From contig CM119263.1 in the NCBI GenBank assembly GCA_051294375.1, positions 11,571,130-11,635,129 on the forward strand: a DNA stretch of 64,000 nucleotides, in the 5' to 3' direction. Made by a program: the position numbers and the translations under genes. The DNA is from Paraspadella gotoi (taxonomy: Eukaryota > Animalia > Chaetognatha). Below the pieces are notes generated by a model. The model searched no databases, had not been told where the DNA came from, and was given only the letters and a program-made list of their open reading frames with translations. How positions within the stretch are numbered: position 1 is the stretch's first letter; each line of letters starts with the position of its first letter. Positions 12,153-52,568 of the stretch are shown piece by piece.

Positions 12153-12376
12153 CGTTGTTGGCAAAGCAGCAAAGAAACTTCTACGGAAAACCTGGGCAAT
12201 GAGGCTCAACAAAAATCAGGTTAATAAATCTCGTCGATGTCAATTCTATTTTCGATTAATAACTGTCCAGAAACGTTTTAATTTTTTTATTTGATCAGGT
12301 CCGGGTTCGCGCCTTGAGTCCCCAAATTTCGTCGACAAAGATGACAAATTCCAAAACAAATCCAGCAAAAATCCCG
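12153..12376 (+). other. Two candidate upstream exons of the E93-like gene (12153-12219, 12299-12376)
   Basis: Flanks are TTTCAG|...|GTTAAT and ATCAG|...|GTGAGA. Read as RCWQSSKETSTENLGNEAQQKS-GPGSRLESPNFVDKDDKFQNKSSKNP they are stop-free and join exon 12926 in phase 1. No start codon or homology found, so they may be UTR. Confidence 0.4.
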
Positions 12377-12666
12377 GTGAGAAACGTTACAGTAATCGTT
12401 CGATATTTATTTATAATATTCTACATGGTATAGTTTTTCTTTTTTTTTCAACGCAACTTCAAAGTTTTGGGGTAAATGCCTCTTTCGTTTTCGAAAAAAA
12501 AGTTAGGATTTTTCGAACAATAGAGTTCGTAGACAATAAGCAACATCGATTGTCTAGGGTCGTTGGCTTCTTCCAAAAAAAAAGTATCTTTTTTCCTCTT
12601 CTTATCCATTCAAAAGTCTTTTTTTTAACCCCCTTTATTGTCTGCTCATGTCAAGCCCTGATATGT

Positions 12667-12775
<109 letters not shown>

Positions 12776-12925
12776 CTCGTCAGAAGTACATTTGCGTCAT
12801 CTGTCTCTCCCTCTCTTTTCCGTTATCAACGAAAGGGTCATCGACAATAGTTGGAGGGTTATCCCGACCCGAGCGCTTCCTCCTCCTCCTCCTCCTCATC
12901 CCCTTTTTCTTCCTGATCCGCTTAG

Positions 12926-13816
12926 GTCCCCTTGGCGGCGACGACGACGATGAAGACGACAAGGACGTCGTCAAGGCTTTGTCGCCCCCTCGCCTCCGTT
13001 CCCGCGCTCGATCCGGCGTCGCCGCCTTGGACGATGACGACGCCGGCGCCTCGGCGGATGGCGCCGATTCAACCCTCGACGCCGGCGCCCCATCGCCGCC
13101 CCCGTCGACGCCGTCAAACCAGCGCCTTTCCTCTCCGGCGTGTTCGTCTCCCGCCGGAAGCGGCGCCGGGGTTGGCACTGTCGGGATCGGTACCGCCTCC
13201 TCTTCAGCACCGTATCCTTCGCCGCTAGAAATGTGGGCGGCTCGTGGCGGTTTAGTTTCCGGCGGTCCGACCGACGGCGCGACGCAGCACCTGTTTCCCC
13301 ATCATCCGCATCCTCATCATCATCACCATCATCATCTTCACCCTCATCCACAACATCATCGAGCGTTGGCTGCCGTCGCCGGATTCGGCTTCGGCGAGGC
13401 GGCGATGGGAGCGTCGACGACGACGTCGACGTCCCACGTGACGACTTCCGGAGGCGTCGTCATTTCTCCCACCTCTACGCCGGCGTCTTTCGCACTCTTT
13501 CAATTGAAGCAGCATAGCGACAAGAAACAACAGCTACTGCAGCAGCATCATCATCAACAACAACAGTGTCATCCACTGTCGCAACAGCAGCAGTTGGAAC
13601 TGAACCGGCGATCCGCCTATCCGGCGTCGTCGGCGCGTTCCAACGTCCCAGGGATTCCAAGTCCAGTCGCCACGTCTTCCATCGGGGGCGTTTCTACTCA
13701 TCAACAGCAGCACGAGACGCCTCTCGATCTTAGCTCTGCCACACCTCCCCCAGAGACGGCGCCGGGACTCGGGGTTGGTGTTAAATCTGGTTTTAACGCC
13801 TCCGACTTATTGAAAG
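12926..13816 (+). CDS. E93: E93-like exon with poly-His, poly-Gln and PLDLS
   Basis: GC-rich open frame. Pyrimidine tract plus CTTAG acceptor at 12921-12925; donor AAG|GT at 13817. Confidence 0.75.
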
Positions 13817-16800
13817 GTGCTTTCAGACAGAAACTTTGACATAGTTTGAATAGAAACTGAAAAACGTCGAACATTTTCTCCCTCCTACAGGTATGACTGC
13901 GGTGGACAACTCCCAAGCTCCTCTCGGCTCTTACCCAGTTGGCGTTGAAGCCCTGCGCCTCTCTCAGTCCACCGCCCCATCGCTCTGCCAGTTTTCCCTG
14001 ACGGGGACCCGTGCGCCACCCCCTTCGATCCCCGCTGCTGATCCCTACCATCATCCTTTCGCCCCGCATCAATTCTGTCCCCGCCCGTTGACGCCGCACG
14101 GCCCGACGTCCCCATCGGCGTCCGGGCCGACGACCGGAAGCCCTGCGGGATCCCTGTCCCCCAGGCCGACGGCCCCTGGGGTTTTGCCCAACTTGGCGGG
14201 GTGAGTACAGCAAAAGACAAAATTACTCCCATGTCTTTACTTTATGAAAGATAAGCGTAAATTTGGAAAGACTACTTTGAGACTTTGTTTTCTTTATAAA
14301 AATTTTAAAAAATAAAGCCCATCTATATCAGAAACGAATGGAAATAAATTTTTTAAAATCGAGTTGGGTTTTTTCCTTCCCACGTTCGTAGAGAGCCGAA
14401 TCGAAAAAAAAAATATAGATAAAATAAAAACGCGAGAGCATTTCCTTGCAGTGGTCAGTGCTCGTGCATTGATTAGCCAATGGAGATAGACATCGCCGAG
14501 AGTTGTCAGCTCACATGTTGTGTGTCGGCAGAAACAATTGAAAGGCAGCACGGACCGACCATCGCCTCACGACTACAACCGCGCCCGACATTCGTTGGCC
14601 AGAGAGAGACGCTCCGGCCACGGCGAGTTAATCCGTAATAGGTTTTATGCCTTCGGACATGAGACAGGAGCGAGCAAACGATAATTATCCTCTCCTCACA
14701 ACGCGAATCAAACAACTTAGGAGAAAAAGCTTTTTTTCCTCGCTGCGTCGTCACCTTTCTTTAGCGTCAGCACTGATTTTTTCCATAATTTTAACATTGC
14801 CAAAATGAAAATTCGTCTCGGTCTAAATTTCTCAGCTCCATTAGATGGACTACTGCTGATATGGGAGAAGGTAAGGATGTTCTGTTTCTAATTTTTGAGA
14901 ATGCCAGCGGTAAACTCAAATCTAATTCATGGTAGTGTAGCTAATACTATGCTAATAAACAATAAAAGGATTCTAAATACCTTATATGTAGATATCCTTC
15001 CTAAAAAATGCTTAGGTCATCCTAACCCTTCAGAGCTGCTTTCACTAAAAAAAATTTGGCCCTCCAGCTTTCACTATAGAAAAAAAACCATTGTTGAGGC
15101 ATGGACAGCTATTCATCCCTGATCTACTTTATTCAGTTGTCTACTAACAATAGATACAAGAAAGAGTGTACTAATGGTGTATGACTAAAGCCACTTAAAT
15201 ATTTTTTTGGGAAAATACATTCGAATAAAAGCAGCGCTGAAAACTGTCTTCGCTAAATTAGCACGCCATCTTGCCTTTCGAATTATCAGCGCTGCAGTAT
15301 GGTAATAAGAGAGGTTTGCACTATTTTTTGGCTAGAGGCAGCCATGTTGGATTTTGGATATTTTGGATGTCGCTTACCACATAGCTTCCTTCGAGCACTG
15401 ATCTTTGCCAGATAGAACAAATACCCGAGCAGTGCTGGGTTCTTCAGTACTGAAGACTTGTGCTCGTGTTAGCCTATGCAACGAATGTGTACAGAGGGGA
15501 TTACTTTCACAGCGTAATTGAAGGCGAGCAAGAGGAGAGGGGAAAAGATGGGATGAAGAAGAGGAGGAGGAAGCAAAAATCACGTGATCTCTTCTCTGAT
15601 GGCTCTTCTTCGTCTTCAGCATCATCTTCTTGTTCCTCAGAACTTAAAATGGCTTCCTTCTTCTTTTTCTTCCTCCTCTTGGCCATTGAGACGACGACGC
15701 TGTAGCCTCCTACCCATTGTTTTTGTTATCAGAGGCTCCTCGTAGACTTTCTCCTCATCTTTATCCTTTCTTCCTATTGGCTCCTTTGGGTCTCCTTGGT
15801 GGTTTTCTTCTTGGGGATTGTCAAGCTCCCCAGCCTTTGTACTTCATGCATGTCTATGCATCGCTGAACCGTCTTATCCTTCACCACCCATCGCCTCTCG
15901 CTGCCGCCGGCGACGACGTCTTCAGGAGGATATACGTCTATTATTGGATATTGCTCAATGATGGCGATGCGCGTTCCTTGTTCTCCCTTCCGAGAAGCAG
16001 GTAGGGGAGGAGTTACCATTGTTCGCTTTTATTAAGCGCTGTTGTTATCAGTCGGCAAGACAAATATCAGTGCCTCAGCCACTGATGTTGTCAAGATATT
16101 CAACCAATGATATTAAAAGAGGAATCATTAGAAACTTTCTTTCACTCTTCTTTGAGAACATTGATAGCTCAATAAAAACTTTCTTTGCATTGATTGCTCA
16201 TGCTGAAATTTACAACGGTTCTCTGTTTCTCATTCTGGCATGGGTAACAAAAGACTGTTGACGGTTGTGATCCTCATGCTTTTAAGTTTACTGCCTTCTG
16301 AATAAAGATTGGCTGCAGTATATCAAGAATTGCCTGTTGCACTTCAATATTTTACTCTATCATTATACACTTTTATCCAAAATATTCGTGATGTCATAAC
16401 GATACCGATTTAATGTTATTATTCTCTTGTAAAATCGATCATTTGATGAGGTCCACTTTATAAATAAAAAAAAAAGTCTAAACGGTGCTTGATTGGTCCT
16501 TCCGTTTTCCCAACGAGCCATATGATTCATCTTGGCCTGTGCTGTCAATACTCAATACACATCGAAGGTCGCGGTGATCTTCCACGTCTCGACCCTGGGG
16601 CAGTGGTCATAATACACTCTCATGGGAGAAGGCGAAACCGCTTTTATTTAAGAGGCATGAAACAAATCCTTTTGTTTGATTCTTTCCCACGAAATTTCAA
16701 CGGGTTTTCGTCCACTTTTTGTGAAAACATTCAGCAAAAAAATTAACCAAAAAACTTTTAAAAGGAGAGAAACCATTGTTTCCATTAAATGAAAAAAAAA

Positions 16801-24137: not shown

Positions 24138-27100
24138 TAGGAAATCTAATAGAATTATATTTTTTTTCTAATTTTTTCGTCAATAAATTACACAAATTTT
24201 TACTTTCATCATTATCCGAAATACATCTTTGAAACTTTGAATGATAATTTAAATAATATTTATATTTGGGAATTAATTCAAAGATTGGCACTTTGTACTT
24301 CGAAGTATTCCCGCTAGAATCTTTCATACAACGAGATTTTATTTTTCGCGAAACGCGCCGAACAAAAGGTCAACGTATAACTTTTCCTACCACAAACTGC
24401 TTGCAATTTATAGCCCTAAAATTTACCGTTTGAAAGATAACTGATAAATAAATCAAAAAAGGTTTGATTCATTTTATTTTAAAATAATAATGTTTCAAGT
24501 CATAATTTTGAAAAGATAAGATTATTCTTATTATTATCATGTTTTATATGAAAAATGGAAACTGAAAAAATCCTCTTCAAATTTTCCTGTTCCATATGTT
24601 TTGCCGTTGTGTTAGTTCTCGTCTTCATTGTAATATTAAAAGAAAATTTTTGAAGGGTTCTACGTATAATAATACATTTTTAAAAGCATTGAAAAATAAT
24701 TTGAAGCACTGCTTTCCCCTTATAAATCGGTATTTTTCTTTTTCAAGTTTTTATTGCATTGAGGCCCTCAAAATGTATCTTCAGTTTTGGGTTCAATGAA
24801 TTATTTTCGTTTTGAAACAGCTTTGTTATATACAGACAATCTACGATTTCTTCTAAAAATAGCAATTCAATTGAATCATCTAAGTACGTATATAAGAATT
24901 CTATTTGTGGTTTGGACACCTCGGCCAACAATTCCTTATATTTTTTTCCAGCTTTTCCACGTCCTCTTCCTTTTATCCTCTTCTTCCTCTATTTTTCTAT
25001 ATAGTGCTCTACAATTAATCCATCGAAAAAAAGGAAGTTGTGACGAAAAAGTTATAAGTTATATTGCAAGAATATATAATTTAAAAGTAAAAAAATTAAA
25101 GTGTATCATTTGTTTTACTTTTTTAAAATACTAAAATGTTTTCAAATACATATAACAAACTAACATATAGCAAATAAATAATATCTTAAATTACAATAAC
25201 AAACATGTTAAGTGAATAATAATTAATAAAATATATATTAATTAGTTATTTCTCAATTTTGGACTTGAGTACAAAGATCTCCACGCAAATTTTTTTTGGG
25301 GAAAAAAAATTCCTCTTTTTTTTTTGGAAAGCCCAACCCTGGCTAAGGGGCATGATTTCCATTGTATTTCCTGGCTCAATTTTTTTATGAAAACTTAAGC
25401 AGCTGCATTTGAAAAGAGACCCAAAAAATAATTTCAACTGGAGGATTTTTGGATCAAAGTACATAATGCCATTTTTTGTAACATTGTCTGATCTTTAAAA
25501 AATGACCCAAAAGCAGTGATGCAGTGATGAGGCTATGGTGGTGGTGGCATCATTGATCGTGGGCTACGCTGAAAGCCTTTACCTCCTCAGTTCCTCTTCC
25601 CCTCCCTTTCCTCATTCGGGTTTTAGTTTTGCCAAAATTTCTACATGCCAGCGTGTTGCAGCTGAATTTTTTTTACGCTTAACCAAATTTGCTCACAAAC
25701 GAAAAGCCTTATGTAAAAATATACATCATTTAAGTTTTTTTCTGAATAAAATTTTACCAAAAATGTTAGTAAGGTATGTTAATATTTTCAAACTGGTAGT
25801 CTTTCCAAATTTTTTATCATTAATTTTTTTTGCAGCCTTTGCAGATAGATTAATTTCTATTATATTATTTTAGGAGGAGAAAACGACTTGGAGGCGAAGG
25901 AGGAAGTGGTGGATCTACATCAATAAAACGTGGTTACACCGAAGAAGAATTGGCAGCAGCAGTGGCGGATATTTGTAGTGGCAAATTAGGGACTAGGCGA
26001 GCTGCAGTACTGTATGGTATACCAAGGTCAACATTACGAAATAAAGTCACCAAAATGGACATCCATGGTAAAAATAAAGCCGCTGCTGCTTCTTTTTCAA
26101 ATGTTAGCTCCACTCTCACGAATGGTATTGCAGTTCAGCCAAGCCCATGCCAGACAAAAACAGAACATGGATTAACACTGCCTAATATGTCAATTCAAAG
26201 TTCACTGTTACAACATCCAAATGTAAATGGCAATCCAATAGCAAACACCTCAAAACTTGGCATGCGTATAAATCCATCTGGACAAAATGAAGATATAAAT
26301 GGAATAGCAGATCAGCGCTGTCACCTTCACATTCCTTCTTCAAATATGACAACTCTACCTGCCTCCCCTTTAGTTGCCAGGTCTGTTTTTGGTTCAGGAG
26401 GAAAACGTGAGATGTCTGGGCCCATAAGGAATACATTGGGTGGTAACACGCTCATTAAGAACATAGGCAGCAGCGCTGCGAATGAAAACATAAGACCAGC
26501 AGGGGACATACATTCAGCGCTTGGGCCACCATTACCAGGACTGCATCCATGGTTTTCTAACTTTGGAATTGAAATGTTATCGAATATACCAAAGGGTTCT
26601 CAAAGTAAGCCTAACATAACAAACTTTAATGACCTGATACAACCTGCTCTATCTCAAAATCGGAATGACAGCTCACCTTCCAGCAACTCCATCAGCAGTG
26701 CAGCGCCTCCTCCTTCAGGCTCTTTTTCCCCTTCAGCAATGTCAGCAGCTGCTGTTACTGCTGACACAAATGCAGACGCTTCTTTTCCAGGAGGCAATAA
26801 TACTTTCCAAAGTCTTCTCTCTGCTGCCTCTACTCCGATGTCTTTTGCTCAAGCATTGGCTAGTGCTGCTGCCCAATATAATAGAGAACTGACCTTTGAG
26901 GCAAAACTTGAAGAATTACGCAGAAAGCATCCTGCTATGTTTGGCTTGCCTGATCCCGTGAGTGAAAGGTTATGTAGAGATGTTGATTTAGCTGTTTTAA
27001 ATCCTTTCCTTGGGCTGACACGGATGCCTCCTGACAATAATGATGTAAATAATATCAGAAAAGAACCAAATATACAAAATAAAGGCCCAGCAGATACGTC

Positions 27101-29123
27101 TACCACGGAGCAAAAACTGCCAAATATGTCAGACATAATTCGTCGTCTTGCAGAGGAAAGAATTTTGTCTCTGGAACGAGAAAGGTTTTCGACAATTTTG
27201 GCAGCTATGAACGCTACTAGAAATTCAGGGCCAAACCCTTTCCTCTCACAGTTGTATGCTGCCAACAGATTAGTCTTAGGTAACGACATCGAATCAAAGT
27301 TTCAAGCCATGAAATCATTACATTTTCCAATTTTTCCACCGGGTCTAGATGTAAAAGATGTTGAGCATATATCTGGTGGAAATTTAGCACAACTCAGTGA
27401 ATTATATGGAAATTGTTTTCAACAATCTCAACCGAACCGAAGCAGAAGTCATTCTCCAGAAGACACTACAGATACAAAACCAAATCAGGACCTATCTCCG
27501 AATTTAATTAACAAAACAAAAACTACATTTGGAGACTTGGTCAGAAATTCCCTACCAGAACATTTAACCACTAATTTAAATCTTAATTCTTTGGGAAACA
27601 ATAATAATTGTGATGATTGTCCGATAGTTTCTAAACGCAGTAAACCAGACTTTAATGATGACAGAGAAGAAACATCTAGTCAAAGATCTCAGGATAGTCT
27701 TAATGATTCTAACAATAAAGACTGTCAAAATCAAGAAAAATGTTCTGAGAGAAAGGATACTAATGGAAGTAGTGTCGGTGGTCAGACAAGCGGGAGTGAA
27801 AGTGACCAAAGTTCCACTGCAACTATTCAACAAAAACGGACAAGACCGAAACGTGGCCAGTATCGCAAATACAATACACAGCATTTGTTAGAAGCAGTTC
27901 GGGCAGTTCAAAGAGGAGAAATGAGTGTTCATAGAGCAGGCAGTTATTATGGAGTCCCACATTCAACTTTAGAATATAAAGTTAAAGAGAGACATCTTTT
28001 GAGACAAAAGAAAAAGGCTGAACAGCAACAGCACCAAGGTAGTGCAGCATCGCCATCTTCATTGTCCTCAACTAGTAGTAGCAAGTATGGTTGTACAAGC
28101 ACTGCTACTCCAGAAAGGTGTAATGGAAAAATATCCCCTGTGCAAGACTCTATCAATATCAAGCAGGATGTCCCTAATGATTTAAGTATCAGAAGTAGAA
28201 GTAGAGATAATATACAGGAATTACCTCCAAGTGGACATAACCTCAGCTCTCCAACACTCTCTTCATACCAACCATTTACATCTGGTTCTGGCGTTTGGAC
28301 TCCCTCTGCCATGGCTGCTGCTGCTGCTTCCCTGGCTAACAACGGGAGTCCAATACCGCCACTGTCCCCTGTTGGACTGACCACTGGCTGTCAAGGCTCA
28401 TTTAATCCTGCTCTTGCGGCTCCTGGACATGCAACTCTACAAGAGAGGGAAGGTCCCTCAGTATCTGACGAGTCTGCAGCAGGCATGGATTTAGATAGTT
28501 TCTGTAACACACCAAGCAGTTTTGCATTGAACACACCTGCTTCTCAGCTTTTGAGAAAGCTTCAACAAAGAGTAATTGAAAAAGAAAAGATTCAAAAACA
28601 GCTTGCATTAGCCATGATGAGCATGGTGCAGCAACATCATCAACCTCTGTCCTCTAATGTATCATTCAGTGCGCCAAGCAGTCCAGCGTTTGAGGACAGA
28701 TCTAGTAGCCCAAACTGCAATGGGACCCAAAACCTTTTATCAAACTCTGATGGTGCAAATCATCGGAACGAACCTCAATTTGACTGTAGACAATCGCCTA
28801 TAAATTCTTATGTTCCAGCGGGATGTGATCAAAATATTTCTAATTCCCGAGAATCCCATGACCCTAATGAGACTCAATCTCCTGCCCCTCCATTCAACAG
28901 AAGTCATTCGGAAAGTCCATGTGGACATGATGGACAACAAAGTAGAAGTGTGACTCCGACATCCCCGTTGCTAATTGGACCGCAAATGATTTCAAATGGA
29001 ACTCATACTCCAACAAGTCGAGAAGGATATGAAGCGCCACAAGTTCTGACAACTTCTTCAATAATTAATACACCTGCCAACTCTGTTTTGGCAGACTGTG
29101 AAGCCTTGATACCTCCACAGTAG
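12926..29123 (+). CDS. E93: E93/Eip93F/Mblk-1 (LCOR/LCORL family) pipsqueak-HTH transcription factor; exons 12926-13816, 13891-14200, 25874-29123; 5' end unresolved
   Basis: Two HTH_psq motifs: GYTEEELAAAVADICSGKLGTRRAAVLYGIPRSTLRNK and RPKRGQYRKYNTQHLLEAVRAVQRGEMSVHRAGSYYGVPHSTLEYKVKERH. CtBP-binding PLDLS at 13720-13734. GT-AG introns 13817-13890 (phase 1) and 14201-25873 (phase 2) keep the frame. First in-frame ATG within exon 12926 is at 13231. Confidence 0.85.
13891..14200 (+). CDS. E93: E93-like Pro/Ser-rich exon
   Basis: CTACAG acceptor and GTGAGT donor; phases match both neighbouring exons. Confidence 0.8.
19225..19312. repeat. (CT)n microsatellite
   Basis: Near-perfect CT run in the E93 intron. 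Confidence 0.9.
25874..29123 (+). CDS. E93: E93-like terminal exon containing both HTH_psq domains
   Basis: 3.25 kb open frame after a TTTTAG acceptor, carrying the diagnostic E93/Mblk-1 HTH motifs; TAG stop at 29121-29123. Confidence 0.95.
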
Positions 29124-33756: not shown

Positions 33757-35370
33757 ATGGCTCAAGTTCCTTTGGCGCCTGGGCGCGTGCTTAAAAATGA
33801 GGCGGAGGAGGAGCGCGCGGAGACAGCGCGTCTTTCTGCTTTTGTTGGCGCCATAGCTATCGGCGACCTGGTGAAATCCACTCTCGGTCCAAAGGGCATG
33901 GACAAAATTTTAGTTGGCGGAAGTCGAGGCTCCAGCGATTTGCAGGTCACGAATGACGGCGCGACCATCCTAAAATCGATCGGTATAGACAATCCTGCGG
34001 CTAAGGTTCTCGTCGATATATCCAAAGTTCAAGATGACGAAGTTGGCGACGGGACTACCTCCGTCGTCGTCCTGGCTTCCGAACTTCTCAAAGAAGCTGA
34101 GAGACTCGTCTCCCTGAAGATTCACCCTCAGACCATTATAGCCGGATGGAGAAAGGCCACGGACGTCGCAAGACGTGCTCTGACGGAATCGGCGGAAGAC
34201 AACGGCGCCGACGAAGAGAAATTCCGAATCGATCTTATGAACATCGCGCGAACAACGCTCAGTTCCAAATTGCTTACGCAGCACAAGGAACACTTTGCCA
34301 GTTTGGCCGTCGACGCCGTGATGCGCTTGAGGGGCTCGGGAAATCTCGATGCCATCCAAATCTTGAAGAAACTTGGAGGAGCGATGACCGACTCTTACCT
34401 AGAGGAAGGCTTTCTGCTTGACAAAAAAGTCGGCCTCAATCAACCAAAGAAAATGGAGAATTGCCGAATCCTCATCGCCAACACCCCAATGGATGCAGAT
34501 AAAATCAAAGTGTTCGGGTCTCGCGTTCGGGTAGATTCGGTGGCCAAAGTGGCTGAGCTCGAATTAGCGGAAAAAGAAAAGATGAAAGACAAAGTGGATA
34601 AGATTCTCAAGCACGGCTGCAATGTCTTCATCAACCGACAGTTGATCTACAATTATCCCGAGCAGCTGTTCGCTGACCACGGCGTCATGGCTATCGAGCA
34701 TGCCGACTTCGAGGGAATAGAACGCTTAGCCCTGGTTCTCGGCGGCGAAATCGCTTCCACTTTTGACGCTCCTGAGTGTGTTCGTCTTGGAGAATGCAAA
34801 CTCATCGAAGAAGTGATGATCGGCGAGGATAAGCTGCTCAAGTTTTCGGGGGTCAAGCTTGGCGAAGCCTGCACGGTCGTTCTCCGCGGTGCCACGCAAC
34901 AAATCCTCGACGAGTCGGATCGTTCTCTTCACGACGCTTTGTGTGTCCTTACACAAACGGTGAAAGAAACAAGGACCGTCTACGGCGGAGGGTGCTCCGA
35001 AGTTCTGATGGCGTGCAAGGTGATGGAATTAGCAGTAGCGACCGAAGGAAAAGAGGCCCTTGCTGTTGAAGCTTTTGCTAATGCCTTGCTAAAAATTCCG
35101 ACAATCATTGCCGACAATGCGGGCTACGATTCTGCTGATCTCGTCGCCAAAATAAGAGCAAAGCACGTGCAAGGCAAAACGGAGTGCGGGCTTGACATGG
35201 AAAGTGGCACGGTCGGAGACATGGTGGCTTTAGGCATAACAGAAAGTTTTCACTGCAAGCGGCAGGTTCTTATGTCGGCGGCGGAAGCTGCCGAGATGAT
35301 ACTTCGCGTGGACGACATCATCAAAGCGGCGCCGCGGCAGAGAGCCAAGGACCCTAGAGGCGTTATGTAA
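33757..35370 (+). CDS. CCT2: T-complex protein 1 subunit beta (CCT2), single coding exon, 537 aa
   Basis: [61 protein letters not shown]-terminal [19 protein letters not shown] at 33757 matches the family N-terminus. Confidence 0.97.
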
Positions 35371-35441: not shown

Positions 35442-35816
35442 TTTAAAGTTAAATATAAGAGAAAATCATTTTTATGAGTGATTAATTATTTATCAGCGAA
35501 TCTAAGTCTTACTGTTCTTACGTGCCGTTTTGTCTATTTCCCCTTTTATATTTCTTGACAGGAAAAAATATGAAGACTAATTTTTTTTTCTAGTATTTAT
35601 ACCATCTAGTCACCTTAATATATTGAATACTTGAATGATAATTCAAAATCCTGAGGTAAACTTCATTTAACTTTCACAAACCCGACATGCAGTATATTTA
35701 TAAACTCAGTTCATGTAAAATAAAATAGGGAGTGGCGGCGGTGCTTCTTTTGATTGAGGCTTTCTTTGCTTCTTTCTTCGGTCATCTTTCCTTTGTTGGG
35801 ATCACATCGACTCGAG

Positions 35817-38673
35817 ATGGAGGGCGCCATGTCAGATAATTTGCGGGTTCAGGAGGTCGACGTGGACGGAGGTTTGGCGCAAGACCTTGACTGGAGTCTC
35901 TCAGGCCTCGGAGTCGACATGAACGCGGCTGCCTACAACATGTCCGAGGCGTTGCTGGCTCTTCCGGTTTATCGTCATGAAAACGTTGAAAATAAATTTC
36001 AGGTTAAAAACACGATTTGTTTTGCTGAATTAGGAGATTAGCTGACTCCTTTCTTATATCTACCTTCACAGTACATTCTCGCGGCGCCTACTTCACCCTT
36101 GACTAAGGTGAACGAGGAGACCCTGACATATCTTAATCAGGGTCAGCCGTACGAAGTTAAACTAAAAAAGCTCGGGGATGTGTCTGAGTTTCAAGGTAAA
36201 TCCCTCCGCAGCGTCATCAAAGTGTGCTTTCACGAACGCCGCCTTCAGTACCAGGAATCAGAACACTTCACAGCATGGCGCACGGCGCGTCCCGGAGAGC
36301 GTGTCCTCAACGTTGACGTTCCCCTTTCATACTCCATCTTTGACGTGAAAAGTCCTAAAGAGCACAACATTAACGCCGTGCAGTTTCTTTGGGATCCCAC
36401 GAAGGAAACCGGCGTTTTTGTGCAAGTCAACTGTTTTTCCACCGAGTTCACCCCCAAGAAACACGGTGGAGAGAAGGGAGTACCATTCCGGATTCAGATC
36501 GACACGTGAGTGCGGCAGAAGGGTGTCAAAATTGTTTTTCTATCTCGTTCTTTATTATGATGTCGTTTTCGCTTCGCTCTTTTTTACTAGTTAGATTTTT
36601 AGATTTTTATAATCATTTAATTGATAATCAAAATATTTTTTATTAGTAGGGGCCTTTAAAACGTAAATTGGGCTGTCTCAGACAGACAGACAGTCTTATA
36701 GAGTTGAGCCGCGAGTACTCAAAATCAAACCCGCGAGCTCTCGCATCGGAATTCTTTCTTTTTACTGTTTTTTCCTCTAAATATTTGTTTTTAGTTTCTC
36801 TCCTTCTTTCTTTTTCTTTCTTTCTTTCTTTCTTTTTTTTTTTTTTTTTTTTCTCTTCTTCTTTTTTTTCTCTTTCTTTCTTTTTTCTCTTTCTTTCTTT
36901 TTTCTTTTTCTTTCTTTCTTTCTTGTTTTATTTACTGTTTTTTATTTTTTTCTTTCTGTTTTGTTTTACTGTTTTTTCTTTTTTTTTTCATTTACTGTTT
37001 CTCTTTCTTTCTTTCTTTCTTTTTTTTCATTTACTGTTTGTTTCTCTTCCTTTTTTTTTTTTTCTTTCTTTCTTTTTTTTTTTTTTTTTTTTTTTTTTTT
37101 CTTTTTTTTTCTTTTTTTTTTCTTTTTTTCTTTTTTTCTTTCTTTTTATTTTACTGTTTCTCTTTTTATTTCTTTTTAATTTACTGTTTCTCTTTCTTTA
37201 TCTTCTTAGTTCTCTTAGTATTAAAACTGTTTTTTTTTTAGCTCGACTTCGCGCCTCTATTTTTTTCAATTATGAAAATTATAAGATGGTTTTGATATTT
37301 CATGTATAAAAAACTGTATATATAGCGTACATGAAAATGAGCTTTGATAATCTAGGTCGTCCTGAGTTAACGATTTTTGATTAACGATTTCCTTCTTGAA
37401 TTCATTCTTATGGAGATAGAGAGATACCTGTAATTAAATTGTTTTGCTTTTGAATTGGGCACAATTTTCAAATTCCCTCTCTCTCCTCAGTTACTCCAAT
37501 GGTGATGGGGACGCCAAGTTTCTTCATTCGGCCTTTTGTCAAGTTAAGGTGTTCAAGCCAAAAGGAGCAGATCGAAAAAACAAGACTGACCGCGAAAAAA
37601 TGGACAAGTTGGGTCGCAAGGAGCGCGAAAGGTATCAGCCTTCTTATGACTGCACAGTTTTCACCGAGGCTCCATTGGATACTCAGTTACAGCCAGATAA
37701 CGCCGCATCTGGTTCTACTTTTGGTATGACACGGTCGTCATCCTCGTCCTCGGCCGTCACTATCGCGGCTTCCCATGACGTAACCGTCGTCGATCAGCAG
37801 CAATCGCAACCTCAGCACGCAAATGTCAAATGGTCGCCGCCTAAGTCGCACCACCCACAACACCACCCTCAAATGCCTCACCATCAGCATCAGAGTCCCA
37901 TATCTGCTACTTTCAATTCTGACCGCGAATCGCCCATGAATTCCGAAGGCCTTCATTCACCGGAAGCTGGTGGTGCAGGAGCCATTCCAACGATGAATGG
38001 GTGGACTGGAGGAGGCGGACCTGTCGTTAATCCCCAGGCAACTCCATCCTCGCTCGTCAATCACTCAAGCTTTATAAGCATTGCCATGAATGGTCACAAC
38101 AGCGCTGGTAATGGGGTCTCTCCCGTTGGATCGTACGGCGCCAATCCCGTCTCCTCCCTAGATGAGGAGCTAGCCGCCACCGCTATGCCAGCCGCCGCTC
38201 TTACAATCCATTCGAGCGCCACTATAGTCGAAGCCTGGCTTCACCGCAACCGGTTTTCCAATTACGTCCGTGTCTTCGGCAATTTCAGCGGCGAGGATCT
38301 TCTCCGATTGTCGCGTGAAGATTTTGTCCAAATTTGCGGCTTAGCCGACGGGATCCGTCTGGACAACGCCTTACAACGCCGCCATGCTCGTCCCAGACTC
38401 ACACTTTATGTGTGCATGGAGAATGATCACGTTTACCATCCTGTGTACCTGGAATCCCCGGCCCTCAACGAATTCAAAGCAAAGTTGGCCGAAGTAGCGA
38501 GACTTAGCCCCGATGCTGTCAAAGAAATGTACTGTCAGGGTCCTTCCGGCATCCATATTTTCGTTTCAGAACAGTTTGTTGCCAACATGAGGGATTCATC
38601 GAGGCTCGCCGTCAGGGCCGTTAAAGAAGAAGGGTCCGATAAAATATTTGTCCTGTTTAGGATTTTGGAGTGA
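35817..38673 (+). CDS. TFCP2: TFCP2/LSF/UBP1 (gemini-like) CP2-family transcription factor; exons 35817-36002, 36072-36505, 37491-38673; ~600 aa
   Basis: LSF-type N-terminus (GLAQDLDWSLSGLG...MSEALLALP). CP2 domain (FQYILAAPTSP..ETLTYLNQGQ, STEFTPKKHGGEKGVPFRIQIDT, CQVKVFKPKGADRK). SAM-like WLHRNRF..FSGEDLLRLSREDFVQICGLADGIRL and C-terminal QGPSGIH. Introns are GT-AG, phase 0 and 2. Confidence 0.93.
36750..37240. repeat. T/C-rich low-complexity tract with recurrent TTTACTGTTT units (TFCP2 intron 2)
   Basis: Almost purine-free + strand; the overlapping Phe-rich ORFs are compositional artefacts. Confidence 0.85.
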
Positions 38674-40378: not shown

Positions 40379-41013
40379 AAATTATATATTGTACTCAATC
40401 AATTCAAAAAGTTAAATTTTCTAAAAATTAATTTTTATTTTTTATAAATAAGTATTAAAAATTGATTATTAAGGTGTAGAATCATATTTCCCGAATTCCG
40501 TTTTTAAATTTCCTTTTTAAATCATTTATCATCAGTACTGACAACTGACAAATATTTTGTTTTTCAGAACTCAAAATAATAAAAAGTGATAAATTTTGGC
40601 CCGACTTGGTGCTTAATTAAAATTAGATTAATAACGAATTTAAATTTTTAATTTGGTATTTTTTTATACCACTACAGTGCGTGCCACTAGTATTCTGTTA
40701 TTTTGCTACATTTTGTTAGTTGATCTTTGCGCTTCCACACGATTCGTAATTAAAAATGTTGTCAGAATTTCAGGTTTCTATTCCTTTAATTTTTTTTTTT
40801 CATATTGAGAACATTTGATGGTGATATTTCGAGAAAAAATCGTTTTTGTAAAAACTAGCCATGCCTCGGTTCCCTAAGCGAGATTGAGGAATGGGTCAGA
40901 TAATCAACTCCATCTCGCCCAACCTAAAAAATGAAAACAACCTAATGGCTTAAATCATATTGTGGAAAACCGTCGCATTTCTGCCTATCGAAAGAAAATT
41001 GGTCGCCAGCTGT

Positions 41014-44000
41014 ATGCATGGATTCAGCGGCGACGCATTGTCCAAGCCCTCGTCAGTGGCGGCGTCGTCGTCGGCACACGGATCCAAGTATGACCCCCTT
41101 CACTCAGAGCCCCCTGCCAAGCTGACGAACAACAATGGCAACAACAACAATAATGAAAGGTGACCTATTTACCTGGCTCAGAGCAGGACTGGGTTCACAA
41201 TTTTTTCTAGATACCTGGACCTAATTGGTACTTATGAAATTTGTTTTCCCAGTGACGTTGAAAACTTAACTTTCGTTGCCATGCCTAAATCCAAAAAATC
41301 AAGGAAACAACCGCCAAGGTGGGTTAAAATTATTAAAATCCATTTTTTGCTAATTTTGTGGCCTACTTTTAATTTTGCTTTGATTATAGAACAAAAAACA
41401 ATTTATTGATCTCTATATGACAGGAGGTGGCAAGTTTTTGCCGGACGCAACAAGTTTTATTGCGACGGTCGCATAATGATGGCGCAACAAACTGGGATCT
41501 TCTATTTCACCTGCGGCCTCATTCTCGTCACGTGCGGTCTTTTCTTTGGATTCGAGTAAATATTTCTTTTTATATACTAATTTATTTTAACATTTACTTG
41601 TGCAGGTGAGTAGATGAGTCGGCATGGCTAAATACTATATAGTAATTACGCTACACAAGTTGTCTATCAAGCTGTTGTGGACTGTTAACTTTTTTTATTT
41701 ATTGTTTTAACCTCCGTACTCCGTAGTTGTCCGTATCTGGCGAGAGAAATATCGGTGGCAATCCCAATCGTCGGCGCCGTTCTTTTCATATTCGTTATGT
41801 CCACGTTGTTCCGAACGTCGTTCACAGATCCCGGTGTCATTCCGCGCGCTACGCAGGTTCAAATTAGTATTTATTTTAAAGTATACTTAATTTTTCAATT
41901 TATTTATTTCTATTCTAAATGAAAATTAACGAAAGTTTTTACAGTATTTTTTAGTTGTTTCCTCCTTTTTGGAAGATTCAAATCTTTTTGTAAAAAAGCA
42001 CTCACATTAACACACATTAACACACAGGACGAAGCGGCGGACATCGAGAAGCAAATCGCGGAGATCCCCGCTCACGCGTCGGGCAACTCTTACCGCCCCC
42101 CGCCGCGAACAAAGGAAGTCACCATCCGAGGTCAGACGGTCAAGCTCAAGTACTGCTTCACTTGCAAAATATTCAGACCCCCGCGAGCCAGCCACTGTAG
42201 CCTCTGCGATAATTGTGTCGGTGAGTACAATACAGTAGTAATAGTAGTATTATTTCTTGATGGTACTAAAAGTTATTAATGAAGCGTTTTTGACAGCACC
42301 TTGCTTAGGTCCTGTTAATCATTCTCTTTTGGTTTTTTAAGTAGTTTTTTACTAGTATCTCTGCGGTCGGCAGTTTTTAGTCGGATCTGCTTATCAGCAG
42401 ATCCCGACTCTAATTCGCTTAGTCGGTCCGTCCCACCATATCAAAAAACTTCAATTACTTGTGATTGCGTGGTTGGATTGGAATGAAATTTTGTGGGTGA
42501 GTAGGAAAGTGTGTGATTGAGCAGGATTTAAAGTTTCGATACATATCTTTTTCCTAATTTTAACTCATAATAAATCTAATTAATCATAATTGGATGGATA
42601 GATTGAGTTAAAATTTTTGTGTGGGTAGGAAAGTGTGTGATTAAGCAGGATTTAGTTTCGATGGAATCATACGAGTGGAAATAAGTTTAAATGGAAAAAA
42701 CCAATGTCAAATTGACTTGAATTTTTTTAGTTTTAATTATTAAAAAATGAGTTTTGTATGTGGTTAGGAAAGTGTGTGATTATGCTAGATATAAAATTTT
42801 GATGGAATCGTGCGAGCGGAAATGTAAAAAAGAAAAGTCACATTCATTTATTTTGACTGATAAGTTTACAATAGCTTCATTAAAATATAATTATAATTAT
42901 AGCGTCTATTTATTATCATTCAAACATTACATACAATCATAGTCAAAATTAAATTTAATCGAATTGGAAATCGTGAATTAAATTCGTAAATTAGAAATTG
43001 TGAGTTAATGTAACAATCGTGAATTAAAATCTTTGAATAAAAATAGTCATTTTAAAATCTTTAATCAGTAAACTTTAATTGAAAATCTTTAATTAATAAT
43101 ACTCACTTCACGATCAATTGATTATGAATTGACGATCGTCACTTCACGATTATCACTACTCGATCGTCACTTAACGATCGTCAACTCATGATTGTAAATT
43201 CACGATCTTAGACTCAAGATCATTATTTCACGTTTGTCAATTTTTATGAATAAAAATTATGTCCATCCAAAAAAAAGAGAAAGAATGAAAGAAAGGACGA
43301 AAAAAAAAAGAAAGAAAGTAGAAAGACATCTGATTAGCTGCTTACCACTAAATTATGTTGGGCAAATCCGACATTGTTTGCTCAAACTTGTTTTTCCCAT
43401 ATCAAAAGCCTGAAACTGTCGTTCTCTCGTAAACATACACATAGTAATTCCTTTATCTAATTAATACATTAAATTTATTTATTATTCTTATGAATTTATT
43501 CATTCAATTAGGTTATTCATTAAATTCAATTGTTTCTTTTACCCAATCCTTCATATAATTTATTTATTACATTCATTTATTTATTCATTTATTTATTCTG
43601 GTCGTCTGTTATTTCCTTCTTTTGCTCTCAATCTCTCTTTTTAGTTGCGCCGCGAGTACTCTATAAGTCACTTTTCGGTCGGTCTGTATGTCTGTTCATC
43701 GGTCTGTCCCACTTACATTAAAAACGCTTATAACTTACCTATAGTTTGTTGCTCATTTGTTAAAAATCAAATCTAAGCGACTTCTGGCGCCGCCTTTTGT
43801 TTTTAAATAAATCTTATAAGCTATAAGGAATAAATGACATGTTAAGTAAAAAAAAATTAATGCGGCGCAACACCTTGGAATAACTGTTCCTTGTTAAGAC
43901 AGAAAAAAAAACTTAAAACTAAGGGACTACTAGCGCTGCCTTCAGGAAATCCTAAAACTAAGGAATAAAAGACGAAATCCGATGCAGTGCGTGTCATAAA

Positions 44001-47000
44001 TACACACTATACACAGGCTAAGAAAGTTATTGTAGTAATGTCGTGTCATATCATGTCATGCCATGTCACGAGAAATACACGTGAAAATAAAGTCACATGG
44101 GATGAACCGATCTTGTTTCTTTCTTTTTCTTTCTTCTTTCTTTCTTTCTTACTTTCTTTCTTACTTTCTTTCATTTTATTTTTTTTATCTTTCATTCCAT
44201 AACATATTGCCTCATGATAATGGAGTTGCCACACAACAATAATGAAAACCTATCTTATATTTTCTAATAGCGGCTTTCGTTCTGTTGTGTTTTACATTTT
44301 ACATTTTAAAAGCGTTTTTTTTATATTATGTTAATATTTTTAAAGTCATAGTTTTTATTTCATCTTGCAACGTACAGTATCTTTTACAACAGTATATCCT
44401 CCCCAGAGCGCTTCGACCATCATTGCCCTTGGGTCGGAAACTGCGTCGGAAAGCGAAATTATAGATACTTTTACTTGTTCATCGTTTCTCTCGCTCTTCT
44501 CTGCGTCTTCGTTTTCGCCTGCGTCCTCACTCATCTCATCCTTCGTGAGTCTTGAAAACATTTATCCAATCCATGACTCGTTTAACTTTAACTTAAGCCC
44601 CCATTTTTTGTTTTCAGTGGCGCAAAAGGACGGGATTCTCGCCGCCATGCAAAAATCGCCTGCAAGATATCCTTTTTTGACACATCTGATAGAATGTTGA
44701 AGAATGAAGTTTTGACTACCAAATGATTTCATGTGAAATGCTGCTTAAGTGACGAATGGCGAGTTTAGTTTCATATCATTTCTTATTTATTTTATATCAG
44801 TTGATTGATGAAGCATGCGGATGATGGCGTTTTTTGAAATTAAAAGATTTACATTTTATTTTCCTTAACCGTTTTGTTCACTTGTGTGGAGATTCTAGTG
44901 TGCTTCTTCTCCGTTTGGTCGATCATAGGCCTTTCGGGCTTCCATTCATATCTCGTGGCTACCAATCAAACCACCAATGAAGACGTGAGTTCAATTCATT
45001 ACTTTTTTTGTTTTTATCGAATATTTTTGCTATTTTGTTTGTTCGCTTTTTCGTAACCTTCTTTTGGTACCATTTTAGTTTAAAATTTTTTTAGTTAGAT
45101 TTGACCACATGAGAAAATGCTTTATCCCTATTTTCCATTAATGAGCGGTGTTTTAATTTGTGATTGGTGAAGTCCAAATCGAATGGTGATAGCTGCGCGA
45201 CCTTAAAACTCAGAAAACATTTGGGCTTTTTAAAAACTTTCAAACGTGCTTTCCTTGACTATTTTGTGCGGTGATTTGTTTACTTTGGTGGTGGCCATCA
45301 TCTGCTTTATCTCCGCCTGGTCAATCGTCGGCCTCGCAGCCTTCCACACCTATCTCACCTCCTCCAACGTTACCACCAATGAAGACGTTAGTCAATGACC
45401 CTCGTTTTTGTTTGCGCAAATTTACCATCAAATTAGCTACATATATAATTTTTTACAGACTCATATAAAGTTTTCTTACCCTTATAAATGAAGTTTTTCA
45501 AAATGTAACGGTGAATTTTGTTAGTCGTCCGTTTCATGTTAGGTGTAATTTGGTCAAATTTCCTACCATTGATTCCGTTTTTATAGAATAGAAAGCTGCT
45601 CATTTTCACTTGAAAGAAAACAGAGCTAACAAATAATTGCGGGAATGGTTGTAAAAAGCGTTTGTTCTCGCCACAGATAAAAGGATCGTTTTCGGCTCGA
45701 AGGGGACAGGAGGCTTTCAATCCTTACAGCCATGGATCTTTCATTAAAAACTGCTGTTTTCTTCTTTGCGGTCCGCCGTTTCCCAGGTGCTGAAGTATTG
45801 ATTTTTTGTATCCCTACATTATATTCTAAATACCAAAAACCTTTTTGTAACTTTTTTTTTGCCTTCTTACTTCAAGCTTGATGAACCGGAGAGGTTTCGT
45901 ACAGCCAGAGTCTTCACACTATTACCAGCTGGTGAGACCCACTTCCTCTCCTAACATTTCCTCCCCTTCGGCTCAAACAACCGTCGCGGCAGCCGCCGTC
46001 TTAGAGCCGGTCGGAATCACCTGCGATGACGCCAACGTCAAATCTACTACCGTCGTCGCTCTCGACGCCAAGCAAACTCTCTCTGCCGTAATTTTTTTCA
46101 TTTTTTTTTTCATTTCTTTGTTGTTAGATTGTCAGATCATTCCCCGATAGTTTAGGTAATAGTATGATAAGTGTTGATGAAAATAATATATAATAAATAA
46201 TAAATATTATTTTCATGATTTTTATTTGTGTTTTCTGTTATCATGACTTGAAATTACTTAAAAAGAAACACTTCGAATTTTTTTTATTTTGGTTTATGTA
46301 TTTGTTAAGAGATTAGCGTTAAATATTTGTGTTAAAATTACGTTCAGGGATTTGGCGATTTCAGAAATTAGTGTCCAAGATATTATAGGGGAGTCCGACG
46401 AACCGACTAAGTTAAAAAGCATATTGTATAATTTTTTTTTTATTTTTCTTCCTTCGTTTTTTTTTTTTTTTTTAGATTCCGCCAATACAATCCAACCTTC
46501 CCTCTCAAGACTCCGGCCTTTCTTATGGAGTTGTTTTTGACCGACATCCCACCGCCCAGAACAACTACGGTGCCACTACTAACTCTCAGGTCAAAATTTA
46601 AAGTTTTAAAATGACTTGCTGTTTGTGAAAAAAAACGCATTGCAATTAATTTGCCGGTAAATTTTAGTATTAAGATGATTATAACCCAACAAACGTAACA
46701 TACTTATTATTATATGTTTATCGGCAGTATCCGATAATTTAGAAGCCCTTTAGCTCTCTATAAGAGTAGTTTAAGTTTGAAACACGATTTACAATTTATA
46801 AAAAAAAATTGAGGTCTCAATAAATTTCTCGGGGCTTAGGCAAAGTTAACAATGCGTTGGAGGTTTCTGAAAAAAATATATCATTTGAAATAATTGAGGT
46901 GGATTAGCTTCAATCAAATTCAAATCAAAAAAATGTTTAAAATGCTTTCGCCGTTTTTCTCTTTGTTCCTTTTATTTCTGCACTTTTGTGTGATAATTAT

Positions 47001-50913: not shown

Positions 50914-52568
50914 AGAGGATATAAGGGGGATTCAGTTGATTTTTTTTTCTTTATTCACTTTCTTTCCCTTAATCATGATGATTTGCACTAAAATCATGTT
51001 GTCATCTGATCTGTAATGTTACGGTAAAAAGAGTTCAAATTAAAGAATAAGCTCCGCAACATTTCTCTTTCCCGCTTTTTGTTATTATATATATTTTTTA
51101 TTGTATTTTTTTCTCTCTTCTGTCGTGATGTAAAAAGAAAATAAATGACTCGTCATTTCGTTAATCTTACCGAAATACAATCGAAGCAGAATTGAAATGG
51201 TTAACAAACACCGTTTGATCTCGGATTTCGGTGACTCTCTAGTTCTTATTCGATATCGTGTTTTGTTTTTAGCGAAACAAAAAAATCTTAAAAAAAAAAA
51301 AGAATCCTGCGCCGTAAAAGCACATCCTTCCTGAAAGATTTGAAACGTTTCTTATCTTTCCTTCATCTACTTCTCATTGCCATCACTACTAGCATATTCA
51401 TAAACTCATATTGACTTTTTAATGAATGATACATGCATTGTCGCATTTGTATCGGTATCCTTTGAAGGCTAAAATTATTATTATTCTTATTATAACTACC
51501 GAGCCTCTGTGTCCTATTATCTATTTTCCCTTTTTTTATTCTAAACGTAATTCCTACTGCGTTGATATTAGTTCGGGGACAGAATTATATGATGACTAAC
51601 TACTTACTTCGTACCCTTTTTTAAAAATAAAAAATAAAATTCTCTTTGTAAAGTATTCCCCCGAACAATTATTTTTCTTTTAAATTTACTTTGACCCTCC
51701 TCGCTTTTTAGTTATTTGTGTCCGTTTCATTGCTTAGTCCTTTTGATTGATATCTGTCAATTTTTTATACTTTCAAAAAAAGTGTTAGTGAAAGCCTAGA
51801 AGACCTACTTTTTTAGGAGTATTTTGCATTATGTTAAACAAAGACATTCTTTGTTACTTCTAATTACTCACTATTATCAACTGAGTAAGTTGATGATTAT
51901 GATGGTATTGTCAAAATTGATACCATATTAAGCTCTGACCATGAAAAAAATTGTTAAAAAACTAAAATTGTTTATTAAATGAAGGTGATTTGCATTTGGA
52001 AACAATATCACGTTTTAAAGCCACTGTCTTAGCTTAACATGAATCTGACTTGTAGTTTTCTTCGTCAAGACCCATTCCTAGTCGTTTTTCGAAGTGTTTC
52101 TGAAAATTTTTACTAGTAGTAGTAAAAATTAAGACGGTGAACTAAATCTTTATTTTGTAAATTGAATGATGTACCGGTAAAATTATACAAAACCTTTTTA
52201 AAACAGTATCAGTGTTTAGGGTTTCGTAGTTTTCTTAGTAAATTGTTGTCTATTTGATTTAGCATATTTAAATGTGTTTTCACCAGGAAAAAAAAACGGA
52301 CAAATAAATTATGGGTGGTGCCCTAAAAATAGTTTGTAGGTTTGATTAGCTTTTATCTAAGAAGAACTTAAAACTGCCGTGTTGGTATAATTATTTAAAT
52401 TTCAATTTACTGCCTCTCGTAAAGATATGCAACAAAAACCAGAATTTTTAGAAAATTCATATCTCAACGAACTCTAGATGTAAATGCATCAGTGAGTAGT
52501 GATTCTTTAAAATTTTACCGTCTTTTGAAAAGCCATTTACAATACTTATTTTTAACAAAATTATTACC

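Follow-up and report, generated by a model that had tools for sequence, protein, structure and literature searches.

Two homologous exons between a U12-type AT-AC intron and a U2-type intron, probably mutually exclusive, in a ZDHHC9/14/18 palmitoyltransferase gene of Paraspadella gotoi

A gene for a DHHC palmitoyltransferase of the ZDHHC9/14/18 type in the chaetognath Paraspadella gotoi contains two homologous exons of equal length (A and B), which share one upstream U12-type donor and are separated by a spacer with a U2-type 5′ end and a U12-type 3′ end. This hybrid spacer is likely uncuttable, such that each message would carry either A or B, with A the likely default; we give this reading a probability of about 0.78. 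The exon pair is real and very likely functional. The class of mechanism is known, whilst for the polarity seen here, the mirror image of the known one, we found no prior report in ZDHHC9/14/18.

The gene and its duplicated exon

The gene lies on the forward strand of the window, i.e. the whole 64,000-nt stretch of DNA that was analysed. An earlier note on this DNA had called it a DHHC palmitoyltransferase, and the Pfam match of its exons (PF01529) and its named protein matches (ZDHHC9, ZDHHC14, ZDHHC18 and app) agree. Compared with solved chains, the DHHC exon is closest to ZDHHC9 (8hf3_A; 70.5 bits, against 52.4 bits for ZDHHC5). The DHHC-CRD, DPG and TTxE motifs are all present, which places the gene in the ZDHHC9/14/18 (Erf2/app) group. 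The features of the gene, all on the forward strand, are as follows, with the basis of each in brackets.

40889–46590, as far as traced: app-type ZDHHC9/14/18 DHHC palmitoyltransferase gene (spliced contig, open frame, PF01529)
44407–44544: exon encoding the catalytic motif DHHC together with TM3 (contig, ZDHHC9 match, open frame)
44618–44666: constant upstream exon, 49 nt (joints 44544->44618 and 44666->44882, in a single contig)
44667–44675: sole U12-type 5′ splice site, ATATCCTTT, phase 2 (sequence and AT..AC joint)
44861–44881: U12-type branch point A, TTCCTTAAC (44861), and AC acceptor (44880–44881) (sequence; used in RNA)
44882–44984: exon A, 103 nt, TM4 and TTxE, with a GTGAGT donor after it (RNA; position in ZDHHC9 via a homologue)
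44985–45283: hybrid spacer, 299 nt, with the U2-type donor GTGAGT at its 5′ end and a U12-type branch point and AC at its 3′ end (sequence)
45251–45283: U12-type branch point B, TTCCTTGAC (45251), and AC acceptor (45282–45283) (sequence)
45284–45386: exon B, 103 nt, the alternative copy, with a U2-type donor GTTAGT after it (selection; 15-nt loose end to 45677)
45674–45786: CAG acceptor (45674–45676) and constant downstream exon (45677–45786) (contig, open frame)

From the constant upstream to the constant downstream exon (44618 to 45786) the cassette takes up 1.1 kb. Exons A and B are identical at 69 of 103 nt, and the peptides that they encode at 19 of 34 residues. There is a negligible probability that the second copy is an artefact of assembly or an allele placed in tandem: short runs of N do occur in the window, but far upstream, and there are 34 mismatches in 103 nt between the copies, whose flanks are unlike. 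This account is already contradicted by a contig from an independent type of data set which runs continuously from the end of A through B (see below), and the layout recurs in other animals.

Within the 2.2-kb intron 5′ of the DHHC exon, positions 42376–44200 hold dense dispersed repeats, which are matched by very many contigs of the run that supplied the RNA evidence (X1).

Splice sites and reading frame

The earlier note had read from the sequence a single U12-type donor at 44667, two homologous exons of 103 nt (44882–44984 and 45284–45386), a separate U12-type branch point, AC acceptor and U2-type donor for each, a CAG acceptor at 45674–45676 and a spacer at 44985–45283 with a U2-type 5′ end and a U12-type 3′ end. 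Each of these is present, with the coordinates exact and the donor in the context AG followed by ATATCCTTT. The donor fits the pattern RTATCCTT and the branch points fit TTCCTTRAC, consistent with assignment to the U12 type. TTCCTTRAC occurs three times in the 128,000 nt of the two strands, twice directly 5′ of exons A and B; its chance in shuffled sequence is approximately 5e-4 per 30-nt zone, and this rarity, together with the placement, argues that the paired branch points are not due to chance. Of the further matches to RTATCCTT, the two at 51455 and 27760 lack a clear exon context and were set aside, and an Rfam search of the window gave zero matches.

No AG is found at the start of either exon, the nearest upstream being 35 nt away for A and 70 nt away for B. 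The branch-point A nucleotide lies 13 nt from the end of the intron at exon A and 25 nt from it at exon B, with neither AC nor AG between branch point B and exon B. The optimal distance from the intron end is given as 11–13 nt in the cited part of PMC3584512; in 65 related acceptors the distance is approximately 10–20 nt, a range beyond which the 25 nt of exon B falls.

When A alone or B alone is included, the reading frame is open. Translation meets an early stop when a message has both exons, lacks both, or keeps the spacer; on reading through the spacer, the stop is reached at 45054, 23 codons in. The frameshift which the earlier note had expected for double inclusion and double skipping is therefore seen, on translation, as an early stop in both cases.

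Joints in assembled RNA

The RNA evidence consists of assembled contigs from one run (X1) of one study, presumed to be RNA, the contigs of which are spliced; runs X2 and X3 cover almost none of the stretch. A 1082-nt contig of X1 spans the exons from 40889 to 44984. Its joints from 40889 have GT..AG ends, with an open reading frame across the exons, and it includes the joint 44666->44882 with AT..AC ends. In this single contig, the intron before exon A has thus been removed as an AT-AC intron; of the alternatives that the earlier note had set against each other, AT-AC removal and the use of nearby GT-AG sites, it is the former that the RNA displays.

After 44984, and likewise after 45386, X1 contigs carry loose ends of 15 nt that match the start of the exon at 45677. 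This is the length expected of true joints, given that the last 15 nt of A and B are identical. Four joints had been predicted in the earlier note, and three of these are present in the contigs (44666->44882, 44984->45677 and 45386->45677); the fourth, 44666->45284, is absent among the listed X1 contig joints, as is the A-to-B joint 44984->45284, although contigs cannot prove absence.

The joint from B to 45677 belongs to a contig that begins within A and crosses the unspliced spacer, being continuous over 44955–45386 with no differences. This contig may represent RNA that is partly spliced or has reached a dead end, or two RNAs merged in the assembly graph; in the last case, pre-mRNA and a B message may have been merged, with the short entry branch to B pruned in assembly. 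The depths of the contigs (126.8 for that with A, 6.2 for that with B) are not taken as expression levels.

Constraint on exon B

Between A and B, pN is 0.26 and pS is 0.56. Across 110 homologous peptides, 15 columns reach a conservation of 90% or more, and exon B retains 14 of these. Neutral evolution was simulated 2000 times, with half of the silent divergence, and this conservation was never matched. On these comparisons, selection looks to be acting on exon B at the amino-acid level. At one position B carries Ala where Gly is invariant in all 110 homologues, and it lies on a long branch in a tree built from the 34 columns.

The unique Gly to Ala change and the long branch would fit a different account of exon B, in which it serves as a decoy or as a poison element, or is a copy that has begun to decay, with RNA containing A, spacer and B being destroyed and B protein being made rarely or never. 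The sole contig with B, in which the unspliced spacer and the joint from B to the next exon occur together, the read-through stop at 45054, and the distance of B from its branch point are likewise in keeping with such a role. We nonetheless regard it as unlikely, as amino-acid-level selection would be unexpected for a decoy, a consensus U12-type branch point and an in-frame AC have been retained before B, and both versions of the exon are annotated as proteins in relatives. Exon B is best read as a genuine but weak alternative to A, and from the selection on B, taken together with the annotated mollusc and nemertean isoforms, we infer a mature B message.

A protein of the B type was sought in close relatives: one search gave seven distant matches among 27 candidates; in a second, with 150 of 370 listed, identity reached 79% at most and the Ala of B did not occur among those listed. 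These searches are uninformative, because the ZDHHC of close relatives seems to be absent from the sets searched (best match 86%).

Proposed mechanism and the basis of exclusivity

The first steps of the mechanism that we propose can be read from the contigs, which link the AT donor at 44667 with the AC acceptor of exon A, and the GT donors of both A and B with the exon at 45677. By analogy with the incompatibility described for JNK, the spacer, with its GT donor and U12-type AC, would fit neither spliceosome, leaving A and B unjoined. A B message would arise when the minor spliceosome skips the optimally spaced acceptor of A in favour of the weaker and more distant acceptor of B. Leakage in the form of A with B, skipping, or spacer retention runs into the early stops seen on translation, and decay would clear it. 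The outcome would be two enzymes with differences at 15 of 34 TM4 positions, mostly in the luminal half, which is predicted to line the acyl pocket at its tail end. The choice between two minor acceptors, which are unequal, follows from the layout and is putative.

Incompatibility of the U2 and U12 spliceosomes is described in the cited passages of PMC3584512 and PMC1874599, and GT-AC intron ends are given as disfavoured in the former; as a counterpoint, annotated hybrid introns that do splice exist as a class, according to the cited part of PMC11347168. An exon with a U12-type intron before it and a U2-type intron after it yields a hybrid spacer immediately upon duplication, and the lock is thus probably a cost-free by-product of the exon duplication.

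Exclusivity could instead be maintained mainly by frameshift and decay, perhaps with RNA pairing over the acceptor of B, the U2/U12 mismatch being incidental and A-to-B joints being made and then destroyed. The exon length of 103 nt is not divisible by three and A with B stops early; 60% of human clusters of mutually exclusive exons are of this type, with joining reads for 22% of those, in the cited part of PMC5740500; and two loci that have lost the U12 intron (L017 and L064, below) retain the duplicate with ordinary splice sites. With regard to RNA pairing, the acceptor region of B (45274–45296) can pair with the end of B (45368–45390; a duplex of −20.7 kcal/mol) or with the end of A (44966–44988; −16.2 kcal/mol). 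The stability of the duplex, which was chosen post hoc from 12 inverted pairs, is equalled in 6 of 2000 synonymous shuffles and in none of 3000 random pairs. Set against this, the duplex takes up 6–15% of the folded ensemble (41% with the end of A, in one of four folded windows) and is absent in two other loci with both copies (L026 and L030); given its small share of the ensemble and its lack of conservation, the pairing is a weak lead. Moreover, there is no AG usable by the U2 spliceosome at the start of B, the nearest being out of frame as well as 70 nt upstream, and the disfavour of GT-AC ends (PMC3584512, as cited above) also speaks against joints from A to B. Exclusivity by frameshift and decay thus appears quite improbable, and we retain the uncuttable spacer as the preferred explanation.

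Comparison with known exon pairs

The earlier note had invoked the mechanism of the JNK exons. The cited passages bear this out as regards the principle of incompatibility, but the polarity is opposite. In MAPK8/9/10, the hybrid spacer between exons 6a and 6b is regarded as refractory to splicing (Chang et al. 2007, PMC1874599; PMC3584512, PMC8329584; cited passages), and, as in the ZDHHC gene, a U2/U12 hybrid spacer there separates two homologous internal exons of equal length. The JNK exons are, in those passages, entered through a U2-type and left through a U12-type intron, which gives a spacer with a U12-type 5′ end and a U2-type 3′ end, whereas the ZDHHC cassette is entered through a U12-type and left through a U2-type intron. 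The ZDHHC spacer therefore has one U2-type and one U12-type end, as a hybrid spacer should, without the polarity of the JNK and TMEM87 spacers (U12-type 5′, U2-type 3′). The choice in JNK is reported there to depend on a U2-type pyrimidine tract, whereas in the ZDHHC cassette a single U12-type donor faces two U12-type branch points and AC acceptors; tissue control by Nova is a feature of JNK, and was shown for it.

Exons 11 and 11a of TMEM87A/B are also exclusive exons of equal length at a minor intron in a gene for a membrane protein (Olthof et al. 2019, PMC6717393; cited part), and they differ from the ZDHHC cassette in having the JNK polarity, in being mammalian and in their tissue-specific use, seen by RT-PCR. 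The same class of mechanism applies to five clusters in human that show U2/U12 incompatibility (Hatje et al. 2017, PMC5740500; cited part). The screen that found them took introns before as well as after exons, and could therefore include the mirror polarity (gene list in its Appendix Fig S18); ZDHHC is absent from the main text of that paper, and ZDHHC9/14/18 from ten of its supplementary files. A mirror-image human case may be found among these incompatibility clusters. Exons 37a/37b of CACNA1A/B/E, and MAPK14 (p38), may follow a U12-type intron, possibly with the same polarity as here.

Within the palmitoyltransferases, U12-type introns are known from two other genes, ZDHHC8 and ZDHHC13 (cited parts of PMC2831892 and PMC5224493). 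Our literature search, in which subscription journals were thinly covered, did not find the cassette described in the ZDHHC9/14/18 family. Alternative splicing at minor introns is considered near-absent in the cited part of PMC3584512, and alternative U12-type 3′ sites to be possibly errors; the present cassette would be a conserved case in which the choice between U12-type acceptors alters a protein. Its compactness (1.1 kb) suits minigene work on acceptor choice, on branch-point distance as the setter of the default, and on whether a GT...AC spacer can be spliced.

Consequence for the protein

The last membrane helix (TM4) and the TTxE motif are encoded by the duplicated exon; this placement is in part an inference, made by aligning a homologue to ZDHHC9 and using the topology given in the cited part of PMC8059564. 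The human ZDHHC9/14/18–GCP16 and yeast Erf2–Erf4 enzymes (bioRxiv 10.1101/2022.12.12.520165, cited part; PDB 8hf3) belong to the same subfamily and contain the same exon peptide. The acyl pocket of DHHC9 is described there as formed by TM1, TM3 and TM4 and as varying near the tail of the chain. Seven of the 15 differences between A and B fall within the first 11 of the 34 residues, at the end adjoining the short luminal loop. Presumably, the A and B isoforms differ in acyl or substrate preference.

Age and spread of the intron and of the duplicated exon

A pattern scan of metagenome contigs, in which the pattern required GT after the matched exon, gave at least 115 loci, 114 of them with the exon; the loci are redundant, with 86 distinct upstream flanks. 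Among the 114 loci listed, an in-phase U12-type donor is found in 44 (43 AT and one of the GT-AG subtype), and the U12-type intron has been lost in 22. In eight of 120 homologous proteins (from mammals, turtle, frog, fish, tick, bivalve and one further source) the annotated sequence reads into the donor as RYP, which is compatible with a U12-type donor of one or the other subtype at that position. The orthologous intron in ZDHHC9/14/18, which the earlier note had proposed to look for, is accordingly seen both in these loci and, as RYP, in vertebrates and a tick. Judged from these sequences, the U12-type intron is old and common to vertebrates and ticks.

The duplication is not general, as shown by 22 of the loci listed which contain the donor, the exon and the next exon and have a single exon copy. 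For vertebrate ZDHHC9/14/18 the same position of the U12-type intron is indicated, with a second version of the exon absent among the listed isoforms; more broadly, no within-species variants of the exon are seen among the isoforms listed for vertebrates, arthropods and priapulids (15 of 35, 15 of 16, and similar parts of larger clusters). Two loci (L026 and L030) have two copies, each with a branch point and AC before it and GT after it, on contigs which end before the donor; their peptides are identical or close to named bivalve proteins. In nine of 12 named mollusc and nemertean species there are isoforms with these 34 residues as their sole difference, and in two scallops, Mizuhopecten and Argopecten, there are three versions of the exon.

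Two further loci have lost the U12-type intron and carry two tandem copies of a fused exon of 152 nt, with plain GT-AG ends:

L017, 1045–1600 (minus strand as oriented): duplicated fused exon, two tandem copies
L064, 23–606: duplicated fused exon, two tandem copies

Two copies can hence persist without a lock. This suggests that it is the possession of two TM4 versions that is favoured, the lock being a mere convenience. Lineages with one copy, with two or three locked copies and with two unlocked copies would allow selection for the lock to be compared with its origin as a by-product.

The tree of the 34-column exon has no well-supported branches, and a ZDHHC tree does not place the gene of the window. 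By residue pattern, exon A resembles a mollusc HSYLV type and exon B an HTYL(A/T)S type; the order is reversed in L026 and L030, and the HSYLV type also occurs in a single-copy locus (L039). A tentative and rather doubtful extension of these observations is an ancient spiralian switch, whereby a regulated minor spliceosome would pick among two or three U12-type acceptors and thereby swap TM4 and alter the choice of fatty acid or substrate. Such a switch would be found in chitons, snails, bivalves, ribbon worms and P. gotoi, where it would have been kept or re-invented, and would have been remade with ordinary splice sites in the intron-loss lineage.

At one locus (L003, minus strand), the orthologous U12-type intron has switched to the GT-AG subtype (GTATCCTTT ... 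TTCCTTGAC ... AG), the only such case among the 44 in-phase donors. The U12-type intron is also a trap for gene prediction that corrupts many ZDHHC14 models: ZDHHC14-type models P0034, P0047, P0050, P0052, P0053, P0097, P0105 and P0114 are broken at it, with the residues RYP(F/L).

Neighbouring genes in the window

Elsewhere on the forward strand of the window, an open frame of 514 codons (12295–13839) lies in a GC-rich stretch and has zero Pfam matches, and one of 1089 codons (25854–29123) encodes two Pipsqueak-type helix-turn-helix domains (PF05225). An intronless CCT-beta gene (33757–35370), a gene of the CP2/grainyhead family (35800–38673) and the ZDHHC gene (40889 onwards) follow each other head to tail. 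The CP2/grainyhead-family gene, approximately 430 nt from CCT-beta, encodes SAM and GRHL1-like C-terminal domains. In a quick tree the CCT-beta protein groups with environmental sequences only; it shares 91% identity with a cluster of 69 environmental proteins, and no more than 79% with the full-length named proteins listed.
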